Origin: a virus
IMG/VR virus record: IMGVR_UViG_3300043447_000376
Coordinates: 1-15,288 of that record
Length of the DNA stretch: 15,288 bases
Strand: one strand, 5' to 3'
Shown here: positions 1 through 15,288 of the stretch, piece by piece
Layout of the letters: the number at the start of each line of letters is the position of its first letter
Numbering within the stretch: position 1 is the stretch's first letter
The notes under the pieces: generated by a model
The model's database searches: none
Told to the model about the DNA's origin: nothing
Seen by the model: the letters and a program-made list of their open reading frames with translations, nothing else
Program-made: the position numbers and the translations under genes

Positions 1-122
1 ATCTTGTATTTACATTGAAGTCAGCAAAGAAGTTTTCTGTATTTGATAGATTAATTAGTGACCACTTTTGTGGATCAAGCAATGAGGTTATTGATTTTTC
101 TGATTTCCAATAAGTTCCAGCA
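1..122. repeat. Left copy of an exact 122-bp terminal direct repeat (identical to 15167..15288). It implies a unit genome of 15,166 bp.
   Basis: Base-by-base comparison: atcttgtatttacattgaag...taagttccagca is present at both window ends. Confidence 0.95.
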
Positions 123-1999
123 TTATATCCATCAGTAACGTATACAGCATTTATCTTTCCATTGTTAGAAATTAAGCTATCAGCAGCTCTTGTCAAATAA
201 TTGTCAATGCCATTAAATACCCAAATGCCATTTTCTTCAGTCTTAATTTGGTTAGTAAGAAGAACTCTATCGCCGTTATTTAGCACAATACCGCTGAACA
301 TTATGTCAGATCTTGGACCAACAAATCTCTTGAATCCAGTAAGCTCTGTATTGTCAACGCTATCTAGTCCTCTAGACTTTGGATTTGTTTGTAACGCACT
401 TGCAGAAAGTCCTAGTCCAGTTGCAGCTATATAAGCCTCTTCTGTATTTGCAAAGAAGACTGAGCCTGGACCATTTACCAAAACATTGTCATTAAGTGCA
501 ACACGAACGTCTTGAAGAATGTTCAACTCTTCTTTGTTAATCTTAATGTCATTGTTTAGAGTTTCTGTAGAACTACCATTTAGTACGTGAGTAATGCTAA
601 ATGTTTCTACTTGGAAATTATTATCAAGCTCAACACCAAACTTTCCAGTTTCAACTAGGTTATTCCAGAATAGTCGTAATGCCTTTTTTGAGTTTGTTGA
701 GATTTCTGGAGACACCATTTCTGCATTAACATTTACAGTTTTTGCAAACTTCTTTGTTTCTTTTCTCCACAAACGCATTCTTCTTTTAATCTCATATTGA
801 GAAATTGGAATATTGATGCCATGTGCAAATGTGTGAATAGCACCGCTAAAGCCATTTACTGAATAAAAGTCCGACGATACTGCTAATTTAAATAGGTCGT
901 TGTCTGATGCAATATCATTGATTCCAACAGTTGCTCCAGTTCCAAGACCCTGACCATAATCAGTAAAAGTTGATCCTGGAACAAGTCCACGAACATCCAT
1001 ATTATTTTCAATATCAACATCATTTTCAAGATAGTTATATACAACGTCTTTTACATTGTTAAATAGCCACTTAATTGTTGGGTAAAAGATTTGATACTCA
1101 TTAACCTTGTCATCAAAACGCTTATCTAGTTGACCATCTACCCAAATTTCAACAAACTTCTTGTTAAACTTGACTCCGTTTGTTTTAATAAGTCCAGGTC
1201 TTCCAAAATTAATAACAATGTGGTGCCAAGTATTATCTGCAACGTTTTCATTGCCAACAAAAAGATAATTTACATTATCTCTATTAAAATCATCATAATA
1301 TTCAATAGCAAGTTTTCCATCTTTAATAATTATGTTCAGATTAATTAACGCACCATCAAAACTATCTGAACGATAGTATGGGTAGTGTTCTGATACCAAA
1401 GATTTTGGAGACATGGTATCGCCAGTTGAAAGAGTTGAAATGGATGCACCATTATCCATTGATGCTCCAAAGGTCCACAGTATTGCGTCCAGGTCAGCAG
1501 CGTCAAGCTGAGAAGAACCAGATGCAACGATACAATTTTGCTTATTTGTTTTAATTGTAAATTCAACATATCCAGATCTAAAGAAGTTAACTTGTTCTGC
1601 CAATTGTGGGCCACCAAGAACAGTTGATGCAGCCTTATTGATATGCATAAGTGTATCTGCATTAACAGATATTGTAGCCTCATCAGAATTAACAGTTCTT
1701 GCGGTAGAAAGTGAACCAATATATTCTGCCCTACCACCAGGTGATCCATAAGCTGCAAAAGAAACTGCTGGAGATAGATTTGTCAAAATCTTATCCTTGA
1801 ATGGCGTATAAGTTGTTCCTGAAGGATTTTGTAGATTTAGCAAATAGTCGTCAGACTCGCCAGGCAAAATAGGAAATGAAAAGTCATAGATAAATCTATT
1901 CTTTGTGCCGTGAAGTTTCTGAGTTTCCCATTGGTCAAATTGAAAGAATGTGTTCTTTTCACTAAATCCAGTAGGATCATTAAATTTTTTCTCTATCAT
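1..1999 (-). CDS. 666-aa tail-fibre-like structural protein with one LamG/concanavalin-like domain and a C-terminal GDRVLL...NGIW module. It is missing from the ORF track because it runs off the left edge.
   Basis: Manual translation from ATG 1999..1997 (MIEKKFNDPTGF...) stays open for 666 codons down to base 2. SD-like GAGAGG lies upstream, and the start overlaps the preceding stop as TAATG. The stop codon TAG is completed only across the circular junction (base 1 plus 15166..15165). LamG-type signature: NTWHHIVINFGRPG...FVEIWVDGQ. Confidence 0.85.
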   Translation of the reverse strand, partial: MIEKKFNDPTGFSEKNTFFQFDQWETQKLHGTKNRFIYDFSFPILPGESDDYLLNLQNPSGTTYTPFKDKILTNLSPAVSFAAYGSPGGRAEYIGSLSTARTVNSDEATISVNADTLMHINKAASTVLGGPQLAEQVNFFRSGYVEFTIKTNKQNCIVASGSSQLDAADLDAILWTFGASMDNGASISTLSTGDTMSPKSLVSEHYPYYRSDSFDGALINLNIIIKDGKLAIEYYDDFNRDNVNYLFVGNENVADNTWHHIVINFGRPGLIKTNGVKFNKKFVEIWVDGQLDKRFDDKVNEYQIFYPTIKWLFNNVKDVVYNYLENDVDIENNMDVRGLVPGSTFTDYGQGLGTGATVGINDIASDNDLFKLAVSSDFYSVNGFSGAIHTFAHGINIPISQYEIKRRMRLWRKETKKFAKTVNVNAEMVSPEISTNSKKALRLFWNNLVETGKFGVELDNNFQVETFSITHVLNGSSTETLNNDIKINKEELNILQDVRVALNDNVLVNGPGSVFFANTEEAYIAATGLGLSASALQTNPKSRGLDSVDNTELTGFKRFVGPRSDIMFSGIVLNNGDRVLLTNQIKTEENGIWVFNGIDNYLTRAADSLISNNGKINAVYVTDGYNAGTYWKSEKSITSLLDPQKWSLINLSNTENFFADFNVNTR

Positions 2000-4900
2000 T
2001 AGGCTACCTCTCTTGTAGGATAAATTCCATCTATTTCAGTTGCTCTTAGCCATGCAGCCCAAGGACTTGTTAGATTGTACATTGAAATTGGATAATTAAA
2101 TGTATTTGTTGTAACAGTAATACCATTAATATAATTATTTGCCAACTTAATTGTTGCCTCCATTGGACCACCAGGAATAGTGATTCGTACACCAGCACTG
2201 TTAAATATTGCAGTTGCTACCATTATATCAGCGATTATGTTAGCAGGCGATGATATAGCTCCACCGTTCATTTGAGCAGATGCTGTCAATGAAGTTGCAT
2301 TAATAGAGATATTTCTAATTGCTGACACAGAAGCATCTGGTGACTCAGATTCAGCTAATGCCCAGTCAGCAGTGTAATTTACAGATGTGCTGGTTGTTGC
2401 AGCGGTTGCCAATGCAGTTGCTGTTATAGGAGATGTAGTAATAACCTTGTTGGTCTGACCAGGCATCATTCCATATAGATTAGAAACAAGTGTCTGAGAA
2501 GCAGAAGTCTTTGCCCAAATTACCTCGTCTACATAAATAATAGTATTTGTTGGTGCAACTGGCAATGATGTAGAGCCAAATGGAGTAATCAAACATCCAA
2601 CAGAAAGTCTTGGATGGTTGTTTGCCTCATCGTTAGCTGGTACAGAGACGGTACCATTGACTGTGGTTCCGTTGTATGTTCCAAGCTGTACTGTCATAAT
2701 ATCAACACCATCAATAAATAGGTTTACACGATTATTTGAGCCAGTGTGATCAAATGCCACTACAACGAAGTGTCTCAATCCATCAAATAGGTTATAGTTT
2801 GAAACTGTTGCCTGATCAATGTATGATCCAGAACCATTGTTAAACTGCAAGTGTAGTTTGTTCTGATATTGATACAAAATTACATGCTGGTTATCATAGT
2901 GTCCGTTTAGGTTCCAAAGAACTCTTAGACCAGTAGAATTATCTTCATCAGCTTTTCTAAACCAGAATGATGAATGGTAATTGTTTAGGCCAGTTCCCCA
3001 GGTATCATTGTATTCAGATTCCTTTAGGATTACTCCGTCAGTAATGTATGATGTTCCAGCTGTCTTGGCAGACTTACCGTTAATGCCAAAATCGGGGTTG
3101 ACGACTGTACCACCAATAGTTACAGGAGCAACTGCATAATCATTGTCTGAGCCATAGTCAAGGAATGAGTTGCTTCCATCAAAAGTTACATAACGATATG
3201 GATTTACATTTGCCATCACATAGTTGTAATATGTATCACTTAATGCAAAGGCATTGTTAGATTCAGCATACGCAATTAACGTTTCTGCAATGCTTGTATT
3301 TCCATATTTTGTAGAAGATTGAACAATTGTTGCAGAAGCAGTAAGCACATCTGCTGCAATATTGTTACTTACCCCAGCAACCACTGTAGCAGATACAATT
3401 AATGCAGAAGCTGTTGCAGCAGTTATTTCTGGAGTAGCATTTGAGTTGACAACAAAATTGTGTGTTCCAGATTGAACAGAAGCAGTCACTGGTGATGGGA
3501 AAATAGTCTTATCTGGAGAAAGAACATTTATAAATGAATAGTGATCAATAATTGTGCTATTGGATAATGCAGATCCATAAATGGCAAATTCATCAACGTA
3601 ATCAGCAGTTGCAATATTATCGCCAGATTGACCTGCAAAGAAATTATCCCATGTTGCTGATGTAAATGATGATGGATTAAGGGTGTCAGTAATAGATCCA
3701 GCAATAGATCCATTTAGATACCAAGATGCAACAAATTCGTTTGTTCCAGAACCTGGAGCAACTCTAACAACATAGTGATTCCAGTCATTGTTTTTATATA
3801 ATGCAGAATTATCTATATATGCTTCTGTTATATATTGACTACCGCCATCTTCAGGCCAATTCGGATTAGTTCTACTAACAAGTCTTGAAATTGTTATTCT
3901 TGATTTAGAAATAGATATATTTCCAAATCCTGCAACTACTTGATCTTCACCCTTAGACCAAACTTCAACGGTAAAGTTTCTTGATGCAACTAAATCTGAA
4001 ATGTCAGATGATGCAGTTGGGTAAATTCTAAAACGGTTTGGGGCATTTGTATAATTTCCAGTACCTGCCCAAGACAGACCAGCACCAACAAGCCCCATAT
4101 CTCCGCCAGATGCCTGTCCAGTGGACATTGTAGATCCTTTGTCATATGAAGCAATAGACATTGTTCCATAATTTGCACCAGTAGCTGTATCAAAATTAAA
4201 GTAGTAGACTGGATTAGATTGCTTAACTAATGCATAGTAACTTGGTGTTACATAAACAGTATGGTTACCAGATTCAGCAGATGCTGTGAGTGCTGCAATT
4301 GGAAGAACTGGTTCAATAATTTCTGCAGTAGCAGTCATTTCTAGTGCTGACCAAGATATATCAGATCCAGTAGAAATATCAACATTATTAATCATCTCAA
4401 TAGATGCTATGAGGGTTGTTGGACCAAGTACTTGTACATATTGTTCTGCCACAACTGCAATGTTTGTTGGCAAAATAGCATTAACTAAAATTGATGTAGT
4501 AATTTCAACATGATCTCCAGCTGTAACTGCAATAGTTGGGTCAGCAAGATCTGCTGAGGCAGTTATTGGGGTTGCTGTGTATGACACGTTTGTTGCATTA
4601 ATTCTTGCATCCCAAATCTGAGAAATTGCAGTAGCGTCAATTGCTGAATATGGAGCAATATAGTAATCAGAAATTTCAAATGTTGTCAATACGCCAGAGT
4701 CTGTGGTAGAACCTCTTGTTGAAGTTCCAAACTGGCTATATGCAGTACCAGTTGTTGTTGTTCCAAGTAGGTCATAAATAAAAACACCGTCTATATAAAC
4801 TTCAGTGTGATATCCAGAACCATCAATAAATGATCTTTGTGCAACATAGTGCCATTCCTGATCATCAACACGATTAGTAGAATATACTGTTCCACCAGTT

Positions 4901-5337
4901 GAAACAGTCAATGTAAGCTTTCCAAGATTTCCAGATGAGCCATTTAACTGAGTTGTCATCGCTCTACCCATACCACCAATCTGAGCGATCATTATATTTG
5001 TGTTATAGGTTTTTCCTGTTTCGTATGTAAAGTTTGTTTTAAACCAAAAACCCAATGAATAGTTACCATCTGTAAGCGGTACGTTAGCAGCAAGAACATT
5101 GCTAAACATTCTGTACATGGTAGTAGTCAAATCATTTGTGCCATTACCAACATTGATTGCCCAAGATCCGTCACCATGCACACCGCCAGTTGCATTTCTT
5201 ACTGGTGCTTCATTTGTAAGTGTAAATGTTGCAGTACCAGATGTACCGCTATTTGTAGGAGTAAGTGAATATGCACCATTAAATCTTACATAAGTTTCTG
5301 GTGAGTAGCTTAAAATTTTGTCTGATAAATTGCTCAT
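1999..5337 (-). CDS. 1112-aa large virion or tail protein with three LamG (Laminin_G_3-like) domains separated by Ala/Thr/Ser-rich linkers.
   Basis: ORF track entry. The LamG signature recurs three times: SLGFWFK...EWHYVA...YIDGV (aa 8-243), NDWNHYVVRVAPG...WYLNG...VDEFAIYGSALS (aa 366-600), and SSFWFRK...RHFVVVAFDH...LFIDGV...VDEVIWAK (aa 702-955). There is no SD, and a T7 run lies immediately upstream of the ATG. Confidence 0.85.
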   Translation of the reverse strand: MSNLSDKILSYSPETYVRFNGAYSLTPTNSGTSGTATFTLTNEAPVRNATGGVHGDGSWAINVGNGTNDLTTTMYRMFSNVLAANVPLTDGNYSLGFWFKTNFTYETGKTYNTNIMIAQIGGMGRAMTTQLNGSSGNLGKLTLTVSTGGTVYSTNRVDDQEWHYVAQRSFIDGSGYHTEVYIDGVFIYDLLGTTTTGTAYSQFGTSTRGSTTDSGVLTTFEISDYYIAPYSAIDATAISQIWDARINATNVSYTATPITASADLADPTIAVTAGDHVEITTSILVNAILPTNIAVVAEQYVQVLGPTTLIASIEMINNVDISTGSDISWSALEMTATAEIIEPVLPIAALTASAESGNHTVYVTPSYYALVKQSNPVYYFNFDTATGANYGTMSIASYDKGSTMSTGQASGGDMGLVGAGLSWAGTGNYTNAPNRFRIYPTASSDISDLVASRNFTVEVWSKGEDQVVAGFGNISISKSRITISRLVSRTNPNWPEDGGSQYITEAYIDNSALYKNNDWNHYVVRVAPGSGTNEFVASWYLNGSIAGSITDTLNPSSFTSATWDNFFAGQSGDNIATADYVDEFAIYGSALSNSTIIDHYSFINVLSPDKTIFPSPVTASVQSGTHNFVVNSNATPEITAATASALIVSATVVAGVSNNIAADVLTASATIVQSSTKYGNTSIAETLIAYAESNNAFALSDTYYNYVMANVNPYRYVTFDGSNSFLDYGSDNDYAVAPVTIGGTVVNPDFGINGKSAKTAGTSYITDGVILKESEYNDTWGTGLNNYHSSFWFRKADEDNSTGLRVLWNLNGHYDNQHVILYQYQNKLHLQFNNGSGSYIDQATVSNYNLFDGLRHFVVVAFDHTGSNNRVNLFIDGVDIMTVQLGTYNGTTVNGTVSVPANDEANNHPRLSVGCLITPFGSTSLPVAPTNTIIYVDEVIWAKTSASQTLVSNLYGMMPGQTNKVITTSPITATALATAATTSTSVNYTADWALAESESPDASVSAIRNISINATSLTASAQMNGGAISSPANIIADIMVATAIFNSAGVRITIPGGPMEATIKLANNYINGITVTTNTFNYPISMYNLTSPWAAWLRATEIDGIYPTREVA
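2222..2230 (-). promoter_or_regulatory. Internal copy of TGATATAAT, a possible promoter for the 666-aa gene.
   Basis: Plus-strand attatatca gives TGATATAAT on the minus strand, 223 nt upstream of ATG 1999 and inside the 3' end of the 1112-aa ORF. Confidence 0.35.
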
Positions 5338-5346
5338 AAAAAAAGA

Positions 5347-5568
5347 CTACGCCAATACAGACGTAGCCATTCCTCCTACCAAATTAAAGTCTGGGTTAAT
5401 TGCATTGAGGCTATGGCCATTAATGCTAAGTGGTGCTGGAGTGAAGCAAGACCAAGATGAGATTACCAAACTAACACCTGTGTTAATTTCAGTTTTAACA
5501 CAAGCAATCTCAATCATTTCAGCCTTTAGGCTGACTGAAAATGGTCCTGCTTCAACTCCAACGTTCAT
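5347..5568 (-). CDS. 73-aa hypothetical protein (MNVGVEAGPFSV...). It ends in a TAG that is in frame with the 1112-aa ORF.
   Basis: ATG 5568..5566 overlaps the upstream stop as TAATG. The frame is open for 73 codons. No homology was recognised. Confidence 0.5.
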   Translation of the reverse strand: MNVGVEAGPFSVSLKAEMIEIACVKTEINTGVSLVISSWSCFTPAPLSINGHSLNAINPDFNLVGGMATSVLA

Positions 5569-11692: not shown

Positions 11693-11701
11693 ATTATATC
11701 A
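11693..11701 (-). promoter_or_regulatory. TGATATAAT motif whose TGA is the stop codon of the HNH gene.
   Basis: Plus-strand attatatca. The motif is followed by three hairpins and the terminator at 11576..11621. Confidence 0.45.
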
Positions 11702-12325
11702 CTTATTCTTTGCTTTGGACTTCTTAGTAATATTAGTCCAGCAAGGCTTACAATAGCTCAAATGACCATCAGGAGAACCTGATCTCTTACCAAATTGAGA
11801 TATTGGTTTCTTGTCATTACACTTTGCACAAGTCTTGCTATCTCTATGGATGGTTGGACCATTGACCATACGCTCATCATACTTAGCTCTATTCATAGTG
11901 TTCATGCATTGCTTACAGTATGTCTGTCTTCCATCAGATAGCCTTGATGACTTATGGAAATCATCTATATGCTTTGATATATTACATTTAATACATAGCT
12001 TATTCATACTTAAATCTTTTCTACTCAAATAATCTTTGTTTGCCCTGGTTTTTTTAATGTGACATGACTTACAAAGTGTCTGAAGGTTGCTAGGCTTATT
12101 GTTAGACTTGTTACCATCTATGTGATCTACTTCAAGCGATCCCTTATTTTCTGGCATTTCATAACAAATCTCGCATTGGTTTTTCTTAAATTTTCTAGCT
12201 TCAACAATGCATTTTTTACATGCTGTACCAAATACCTGTTGACCTTTAGTGTTTCTTCCTTTTGATAGAGTTGGATATTGTCCACACTCACACATTGTTC
12301 TTACTAGTAACCCTGTTGTTGCCAT
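11699..12325 (-). CDS. HNH endonuclease with several CxxC zinc-ribbon modules, 208 aa.
   Basis: HNH core: EVDHIDGNKSNNKPSNLQTLCKSCH. It is flanked by CECG...CKKC and CEIC, plus two C-terminal repeats of the form CxKCN..K.I..F.K.....DG....YCKxC. SD AGGAGA lies 8 nt upstream. Confidence 0.85.
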   Translation of the reverse strand: MATTGLLVRTMCECGQYPTLSKGRNTKGQQVFGTACKKCIVEARKFKKNQCEICYEMPENKGSLEVDHIDGNKSNNKPSNLQTLCKSCHIKKTRANKDYLSRKDLSMNKLCIKCNISKHIDDFHKSSRLSDGRQTYCKQCMNTMNRAKYDERMVNGPTIHRDSKTCAKCNDKKPISQFGKRSGSPDGHLSYCKPCWTNITKKSKAKNK

Positions 12326-13994: not shown

Positions 13995-15098
13995 CTATTC
14001 TGCCAACCATTGTAGTCCAAGCCATGTCATTGACAAGACTGGGATTTGTTGTGTTGGGTAAATTTCTTCAGATTCAGTTGGGTATAGGTCAGACTGGTAA
14101 TCTGTGTTATTTCTAACCGTCTCTGAAGTAATAATACCATTGGATGAATTGGTTGGTGCCTGAATTAGTGGGCCACCACCACCATTTGTAGGAATTACCT
14201 GACCATATGGAGTGACATCCTTAATATTAATTCTTCTTGGTGCTCTATTTAATCTACTTGTTGAATACTGCCAAGCTCTTGTTGATGTGGTTTCATTAAC
14301 AACATCATTTGGAACAACCTGAATTGTTGCCTTGTTGTATTCTTCACGACTCATTGTTAGTGAATCCTCAACACAGTTTACAAAGATTTTTCCATTTATT
14401 GGATAGTTTCCAAGCAATTGACCATCATGAACAACAATTGTTGTAGCGTAATCATCAAATTCATTAACAACTAGATTTGATCCATGGTAATGATTATTTG
14501 CAAGACTTGTTACAACAGTTCCAGCAATCACATTATTAGGAGCAACTGCATGAATGTTTTTTGTTCCACGAGCATTTTGTCTAAATCCAGGAATAGAATC
14601 ATTCTCTGTTGACTGTCTTAGTGCTAGAGATGGAATTATAAACTCATTACCTTCTTGCAAACCAAATTGACGATAAGAGTATTTTGCGTGATATTCTTCA
14701 TAGTCATACGTGTTTTCTGGAAGATAGTTAATAAACTCAGCAAGCACCCATGTTTCCTTGTCAGTAAGTCCAGGAATTGCTGTGTCAAGGTGGTATGAAT
14801 TCTGTCTGTGAGTATCAAAATATCTTTCAGCTGGTTCATCAAACTGGAATGGATTTACTACAGCAGCTCTTCCATCGCCAATCTCAACCTCTTGAGGTAT
14901 AGAAGAGTATTGCTTTACAATTCCAAGATCTTCTGCAAGTTTTGGACTTGAAACAAATAGGCTTGCACCATTTGCAGCAGCAAGCTTAAGGGATTCAAGG
15001 AATTCTGCATATCTATTTAGTATTTCTGACTGTGGGTCATTTGGGAACATCTCAAAGATTTGTTCATTGTACTCTGGATAGTTAACAAAAGTGACCAA
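13995..15098 (-). CDS. 367-aa putative tail-associated structural protein. Its frame stays open upstream to 15164 and is in frame with the 666-aa ORF through a TAG.
   Basis: ORF track entry (TTG start with no SD). The first ATG is at 15050, also without an SD. The ORF ends in TAG. No family was recognised. Confidence 0.7.
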   Translation of the reverse strand: MVTFVNYPEYNEQIFEMFPNDPQSEILNRYAEFLESLKLAAANGASLFVSSPKLAEDLGIVKQYSSIPQEVEIGDGRAAVVNPFQFDEPAERYFDTHRQNSYHLDTAIPGLTDKETWVLAEFINYLPENTYDYEEYHAKYSYRQFGLQEGNEFIIPSLALRQSTENDSIPGFRQNARGTKNIHAVAPNNVIAGTVVTSLANNHYHGSNLVVNEFDDYATTIVVHDGQLLGNYPINGKIFVNCVEDSLTMSREEYNKATIQVVPNDVVNETTSTRAWQYSTSRLNRAPRRINIKDVTPYGQVIPTNGGGGPLIQAPTNSSNGIITSETVRNNTDYQSDLYPTESEEIYPTQQIPVLSMTWLGLQWLAE

Positions 15099-15164
15099 GT
15101 CATAACTAGATAGATCAATATCAGAGTTAATATCAATAAATCTGTCTTCGCCACGGTAGTTTTT

Positions 15165-15288
15165 CTATCTTGTATTTACATTGAAGTCAGCAAAGAAGTT
15201 TTCTGTATTTGATAGATTAATTAGTGACCACTTTTGTGGATCAAGCAATGAGGTTATTGATTTTTCTGATTTCCAATAAGTTCCAGCA
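15165..15288 (-). CDS. Duplicate C-terminal 40 codons plus the TAG stop of the 666-aa gene, the same gene as 1..1999 seen across the junction.
   Basis: 15167..15288 equals 1..122. The reading frame ...FADFNVNTR is followed by TAG at 15167..15165. Confidence 0.85.
   Translation of the reverse strand, partial: AGTYWKSEKSITSLLDPQKWSLINLSNTENFFADFNVNTR
15167..15288. repeat. Right copy of the 122-bp terminal repeat, either circular-assembly overlap or terminal redundancy.
   Basis: Identical to 1..122. The junction lies inside an ORF, which favours a circular or permuted genome over fixed physical ends. Confidence 0.95.

Follow-up and report, generated by a model that had tools for sequence, protein, structure and literature searches.

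The window analysed here, a 15,288-nucleotide stretch of DNA recorded as a virus in IMG/VR (IMGVR_UViG_3300043447_000376), contains a TAG codon inside what would otherwise be one long reading frame for a fibre protein. The locus raises the question of whether this codon is a designed feature of the genome, such as a read-through signal or a reassigned codon, or an ordinary stop that has arisen by mutation. The initial annotation, made from the sequence of the window alone, had offered read-through, suppressor dependence and codon reassignment as candidate explanations. We addressed the question by comparing the window with its relatives and by examining the use of TAG across the family.

Positions 1..122 of the window are identical to positions 15167..15288, so the molecule is a circle of 15,166 bp. 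Since this 122-nt terminal overlap lies within the fibre gene, we interpret it as an assembly overlap of a circular path and not as a physical genome end. The GC content of the window is 38%, and all credible genes are carried by the minus strand. Two of them are giant genes, of 1,112 and 1,056 codons. The gene content is best explained if the window represents the complete genome, approximately 15.2 kb, of a relative of the Streptomyces satellites MiniFlayer and MulchRoom, either a small tailed phage or a phage satellite.

Translation of the minus strand across the closed circle confirmed the reading frame proposed earlier: 666 sense codons from the ATG at 1999 are followed by TAG at 15167..15165 and by 389 further in-frame sense codons, which gives a composite frame of 666 + 1 + 389 = 1,056 codons broken by a single TAG. 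The 667th codon consists of T (position 1, equal to 15167), A (15166), and G (15165). The first 22 codons past it (KNYRGEDRFIDINSDIDLSSYD) are free of stops and lead in frame into the 367-aa ORF that begins at TTG 15098, again as initially described. The TAG is contiguous at 15165..15167 and is preceded within the window by 40 in-frame codons (15168..15288); therefore, it is not a product of circle closure. It was also correctly noticed that neither TTG 15098 nor the later ATG 15050 is preceded by a Shine-Dalgarno sequence, whereas most other genes of the window have SD-like AGGAG motifs or TAATG overlaps. The coordinates of the features are collected in Table 1.

Table 1. Positions of the features discussed in the text, in window numbering.
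Feature	Position	Strand	Remarks
Terminal overlap	15167..15288		Identical to 1..122; inside the fibre gene, read in frame throughout
Putative fibre/adsorption gene, N-terminal 666 codons	1..1999	-	ATG at 1999..1997; position 1 is the T of TAG; collinear with the N-terminal two thirds of the relatives' ORFs
In-frame amber codon TAG	15165..15167	-	Middle base 15166 substituted; TGG in relatives
Putative fibre gene, C-terminal 389 codons and normal terminator TAG (13997..13995)	13995..15164	-	Most conserved module of the protein
9-bp hairpin (GGCTACG, loop, CGTAGTC) followed by TTTTTTT	5345..5368	-	Directly before ATG 5337 of the 1,112-aa gene

Relatives were retrieved by scans of IMG/VR, JGI metagenomes, and GTDB genomes, with the best 80 of about 400 IMG/VR relatives taken; they comprise many contigs of about 15–16 kb belonging to the same family. 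The fibre ORF runs uninterrupted across the site in all 8 relatives found first as well as in all later ones that span it. Full-length fibre ORFs of the relatives encode 951–1,076 aa and are collinear with the composite frame of the window. Homology continues across the amber stop in the same frame in all relatives, which is more than would be expected by chance. These fused, collinear homologues, which the initial annotation had proposed as a check, indicate that the 666-aa and 367-aa ORFs of the window are two pieces of one gene.

The residue aligned with the stop, the second check proposed, is tryptophan. After removal of duplicates, 62 unique 300-nt contexts remained, that of the window included. 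The codon at the site is TGG in 60 of them, TAT in one distant member of the family, and TAG only in the window. In the closest relative (L008/L010), which is 88–95% identical to the window in nucleotides and 97% in amino acids over the fibre, AGA TGG AAA stands in place of the AGA TAG AAA of the window. Thus, tryptophan is nearly invariant in the relatives; even the closest of them does not share the stop, and none of the relatives examined has any stop at this codon. The exact-pattern scan of IMG/VR revealed no other genome with the TAG allele, nor was one present among the matches listed from the profile scans of IMG/VR, JGI metagenomes, and GTDB. Exact-protein look-ups for the allele returned only an identical contig of the Logan assemblies. 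Judging from the alignment, the TAG is a G-to-A transition in the middle base (15166 on the minus strand) of a nearly invariant Trp codon. Uninterrupted homologues with a sense codon one substitution away, here TGG vs. TAG, are what a spontaneous nonsense allele should have.

We consider it very probable from these comparisons that the locus carries a recent natural amber mutation (TGG to TAG) in a conserved Trp codon of an adsorption-protein gene. A single G-to-A transition at base 15166 of the minus strand would have converted the codon, which lies in the short linker that leads into the C-terminal module. In a host of the ordinary kind, translation would then end after residue 666, and the only sources of the C-terminal module would be rare near-cognate read-through and provision in trans by co-infecting wild-type genomes. 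Amber (UAG) mutants in late genes are classical objects of phage genetics, e.g., the am mutants of T4 and Sam7 of lambda. The window resembles them in that one base change has turned a sense codon of an intact structural gene into TAG, with the downstream part in frame and homologous to the wild type. It differs from them in being a natural allele from a metagenome and not a selected laboratory mutant, with nothing that indicates a suppressor host. A lethal mutation in a late structural gene would not be expected at the consensus level, except where the phage can do without the C-terminal module, obtains it by complementation in trans, or makes it by read-through.

The part of the gene downstream of the stop is well preserved. 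All 389 codons are open, with a dN/dS of 0.17 vs. one of the relatives (L001), and the C-terminal module keeps 114 of the 122 columns conserved in the family. The 8 deviations at conserved columns appear, in an alignment inspected by eye, to be mostly common to the intact relatives L001 and L008. Since the downstream region is intact and undecayed, the mutation is presumably recent. Relaxed selection downstream of the stop was considered and rejected. In comparison with L008, dN/dS was 0.15 downstream of the TAG vs. 0.03 upstream (Fisher p = 6e-4), and amino acid changes polarised by outgroups were 7:3 downstream vs. 5:1 upstream, i.e., not specific to the window lineage. Because the changes fall on both the window and the L008 lineages, the higher downstream dN/dS is regional and not caused by the stop.

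The first alternative to be weighed against the amber mutation is a sequencing or consensus error, in which the true codon is TGG and the A comes from the read data or from the collapsing of variants during assembly. The window is a JGI/IMG contig, and the Logan contig (L138, label SRR35179909, 6,809 bp) is 100% identical to it, with the TAG in its interior and perfect identity over more than 3 kb on each side; gene calls on this contig give products of 666 aa and 351 aa. The same base is thus present in two assemblies with different sample labels, and these two contigs are the only occurrences of the allele among the scans and look-ups, which together with the undegraded downstream part is the distribution expected for a nonsense allele confined to one lineage or sample. 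The two assemblies may or may not share reads; still, the allele is no artefact of circle closure or of a single assembler, and substitution errors seldom survive the consensus of short-read assemblies. Other contigs of the family have scaffold gaps or out-of-frame joins near the hypervariable linker, as would suit an error. On balance, we regard an error, systematic or otherwise, as unlikely; the base may also be one of two alleles, major and minor, in the sample.

The substituted base 15166 is also the last unique base before the terminal overlap, and the contig starts one base after it. Such a position next to the start of the contig path might reflect a branch in the original assembly graph, caused by a polymorphism, and would then speak for variant collapsing. 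However, the Logan contig passes the site unbroken, so we do not take the contig start as evidence of a polymorphic branch and leave it as an unexplained coincidence.

According to another explanation, the stop is functional and leaky, and low-level read-through of UAG yields a major short form of the fibre of 666 aa and a minor long form of 1,056 aa. Programmed read-through of this kind is known for the A1 protein of Q-beta, via UGA, and for retroviral gag-pol, via UAG, and such systems conserve both the stop and its context among relatives. The likeness of the window to them consists in a short product ending at the stop and a potential C-terminal extension in the same frame. The position of the codon in an inter-module linker and the intact, undecayed module behind it would suit a leaky stop, as would an in-frame TGA one codon away in a distant relative (L086), likewise without a nearby start codon. 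The base following the stop is A, and the RNA downstream may form a modest hairpin (minimum free energy -25.1 kcal/mol, z = -2.05), but this fold is only marginally better than those of shuffled sequences, 7 of 200 being as stable, and neither a known read-through motif nor an Rfam element was found. The window stop is a singleton whose context is the same as in the Trp-encoding relatives: tryptophan occupies the site in genomes with 88–95% nucleotide identity and in 60 of the 62 contexts. Moreover, the residue replaced is this conserved tryptophan and not a variable position of the linker. The neighbouring TGA of the distant relative is itself a singleton in its clade, so neither the stop nor its position is conserved among relatives. 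With TAG confined to the window among the 62 contexts, the short and long isoforms suggested earlier find no support, and we consider a functional leaky stop quite unlikely.

Disruptions of the fibre gene are present in other members of the family too. The TGA of the distant relative just mentioned (position 5302) stands exactly one codon after the same tryptophan, and homology continues in frame beyond it; the members of its own clade (L125-L127, 82–85% identity) have AGA at this codon. In another contig (L136, position 137), a TAT has become TAA in the first half of the gene, i.e., in the N-terminal part, and sister contigs keep TAT. Two further contigs, L130 (about 3890-3930) and L131 (about 3256-3292), have out-of-frame deletions of about 45–50 codons lying at most about 55 codons from the junction; they represent deletions or misjoins, and the disruptions in relatives may in general be either real variants or misassemblies of a hypervariable region. 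Other short database proteins that start at MNYPE are contig-edge truncations or are due to scaffold gaps (L129, L132-L135). A TAA in L060 was rejected as an in-frame fibre stop, being the normal end of the homologue of the 1,112-aa gene. As far as the sequences go, the fibre gene is disrupted sporadically, in single lineages, and TAG, TGA, and TAA all occur among the stops; reassignment of one codon would predict the opposite.

The amber mutation of the window and the TGA of the distant relative lie so close together that the probability of this by chance within the gene is roughly 3 in 1,000. The two deletions add little weight to the clustering, because the look-up behind them was biased towards events near the junction. 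Clustering of disruptions at the linker hints that truncation there may be tolerated or even selected, which is not the pattern expected of a random lethal mutation. The linker could be a recurrent truncation point of this kind, and if the element is a satellite like MiniFlayer, the stop could act as a conditional switch, with the attachment module added only via read-through or via a suppressor tRNA of the host or helper. We hold this reading to be very unlikely.

An extremely unlikely explanation is that a host or a co-infecting helper provides tRNA(CUA) or reassigns TAG, so that the codon is read as sense. Two general considerations make the idea worth stating: judging from its genes, the element resembles helper-dependent satellites, and recoding of stop codons in late genes is known in phages. 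Recoded phages (code 15; crAss-like, Lak, and others) share with the window an in-frame TAG in a late structural gene and low GC; in those phages TAG is recoded to Gln in late genes, and contigs of 5–100 kb were recognised by a gain in coding density of at least 10% when TAG was read as sense (bioRxiv 10.1101/2021.08.26.457843).

In other respects the window departs from this pattern. Coding density rose from 92.6% with the standard code to 93.2% when TAG was read as sense, a negligible gain of 0.6 points. Apart from the TAGs that end ORFs, about 4,700 codons of the window contain no internal TAG but the amber codon, where recoded genomes would be expected to have many in-frame TAGs and no TAG terminators. 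TAG terminates three ORFs of the window and ends the fibre gene both there and in 30 of 46 non-redundant relatives, the remainder having TAA (14/46) or TGA (2/46). This alternation at the end of the gene shows that TAG is an ordinary stop in the family, and the end codon of the small upstream gene g73 also alternates between TAG and TAA among relatives. No tRNA, including suppressor tRNA(CUA), is encoded in the window according to ARAGORN, and Rfam likewise gave no match. The ancestral residue is Trp, in 60 of the 62 contexts, and not Gln; the relatives are free of the stop, the singleton stops of sister lineages are TGA and TAA, and no in-frame TAG was present in about 200,000 non-redundant aligned codons from 8 structural genes of the relatives.

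Reassignment of TAG, which had been proposed by analogy with recoded phages, is therefore rejected on the grounds of terminator usage, the single occurrence, the lack of a tRNA, coding density, and the alignment with Trp. The proposed dependence on a suppressor tRNA is extremely unlikely as well, with no tRNA in the window and only one internal TAG, and nothing points to dependence on a suppressor of the host or helper. An equally improbable explanation is a true split of the gene, with the second half re-initiated as a separate protein at TTG 15098 or ATG 15050: the stop does lie at a module boundary and gene callers do give a 351-aa product, but neither start has a Shine-Dalgarno sequence, starting there would drop 23–39 residues including the strongly conserved RFIDL..D.N...YDLIVFMNYPE, and none of the relatives examined has a separate gene here. 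Of the overall interpretation given in the initial annotation, the single gene stands, and read-through isoforms, suppressor dependence, and TAG reassignment as designed features are not supported. We conclude that the allele is most probably an ordinary nonsense mutation; an error is the less likely alternative.

The affected gene is best explained, from homology and gene order, as a second large tail or adsorption gene. Its normal state is a single ORF of about 1,050 codons, in which a variable N-terminal part is followed by a C-terminal module of about 390 aa that is conserved. The C-terminal module is 55–91% identical to those of the relatives. In a tblastn search with the second half against 50,697 phage records, the single hit was gp8 of MiniFlayer (OQ357865.1, here L009), with 27% identity, an E-value of 1e-28, and coverage of 98% of the query; the homologous region lies inside one uninterrupted ORF of 1,376 aa. 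The window and MiniFlayer share the gene order of TerL, portal, scaffold, HK97-type capsid, a 144-aa protein, a small protein, giant protein(s), head-to-tail adaptor, and HNH. The best matches of the portal are to MiniFlayer (44%) and MulchRoom (42%), with other actinobacteriophages at 33% or less. Homology and gene neighbourhood thus agree in placing the protein with MiniFlayer gp8, and we designate it a MiniFlayer gp8-like putative adsorption protein. The differences are that the window belongs to an element of 38% GC from a metagenome and has two giant genes instead of one.

The tail fibre gene of MiniFlayer and three adjacent hypothetical proteins were proposed to form an adsorption module that attaches to the neck of the helper (PMC10690885). 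By our own reading of the gene map, gp8 would be among those three adjacent proteins. Neither half of the fibre protein of the window had a Pfam match, and weak PHROG matches to virion structural, head decoration, and tail fibre families were confined to residues 570–653 of the first half. An AlphaFold model of the second half had a pLDDT of 72 and a pTM of 0.71. Its first 11 residues are coil, which places the amber stop in the linker between the modules. No significant structural neighbours of the C-terminal module were found: the profile search of PDB gave nothing, and the best Foldseek match against PDB, a GATase1-like protein, was rejected as a relative, being not significant (E = 0.29).

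A second in-frame TAG occurs at 5349..5347, between the TAATG-coupled 73-aa ORF and the 1,112-aa ORF. It was considered as support for recoding and rejected, because it falls within the 3' arm of a conserved hairpin, with T7 and the ATG behind it. In many relatives a further in-frame TAA precedes the equivalent TAG by 9 nt, and in three relatives the frames do not match. The hairpin is kept at the equivalent site in 19 of 19 aligned relatives (from L001-L080), with GU, GC, and AU alternatives at one pair. Together with the T7 tract, it resembles an intrinsic terminator or an attenuator placed behind the capsid genes. An AGGAGG stands immediately 5' of the hairpin, and ATG 5337 is otherwise without a Shine-Dalgarno sequence; we infer that the hairpin might bring this distant Shine-Dalgarno sequence close to the start codon.

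Elsewhere in the window, a 208-aa ORF (11699..12325, minus strand) has an HNH endonuclease domain and, C-terminal to it, a zinc-finger, endonuclease VII or Lar-like region. The two parts are separate genes in about 20 relatives, adjacent and in frame, with TAA (TAG in one case) and a new ATG between them; hence, the ORF of the window is a fusion or has lost a stop. This fusion is the mirror image of the fibre case. Polymerase, primase, and integrase families had no match among the ORFs scanned, a set from which several small ORFs of the early region were left out.

For annotation, these results mean that the 666-aa and the 351/367-aa products should be merged and flagged as one gene broken by a nonsense codon, and that the genome should not be treated as one with an alternative code. 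Three inexpensive observations tell a nonsense codon from recoding: which codon close relatives have at the aligned site, whether orthologous genes end with the same stop codon, and how much coding density changes. In the improbable case that truncation in a satellite-like adsorption protein is tolerated or conditional, it would bear on how attachment is tuned, although nothing requires that reading.

The TAG itself deserves less attention than the conserved hairpin and the family to which the window belongs. One member of the family (L046; RHCX01000049.1; P0014) is in a GenBank MAG labelled as a Nitrososphaeria/Thaumarchaeota archaeon; because all portal matches are to actinobacteriophages, this is probably a viral contig that was binned by mistake. 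Dozens of related contigs of about 15–16 kb are present in IMG/VR and JGI metagenomes. By their gene content, they may form a low-GC clade of wide occurrence, made up of MiniFlayer-like elements that could be satellites of actinobacteria-infecting phages.
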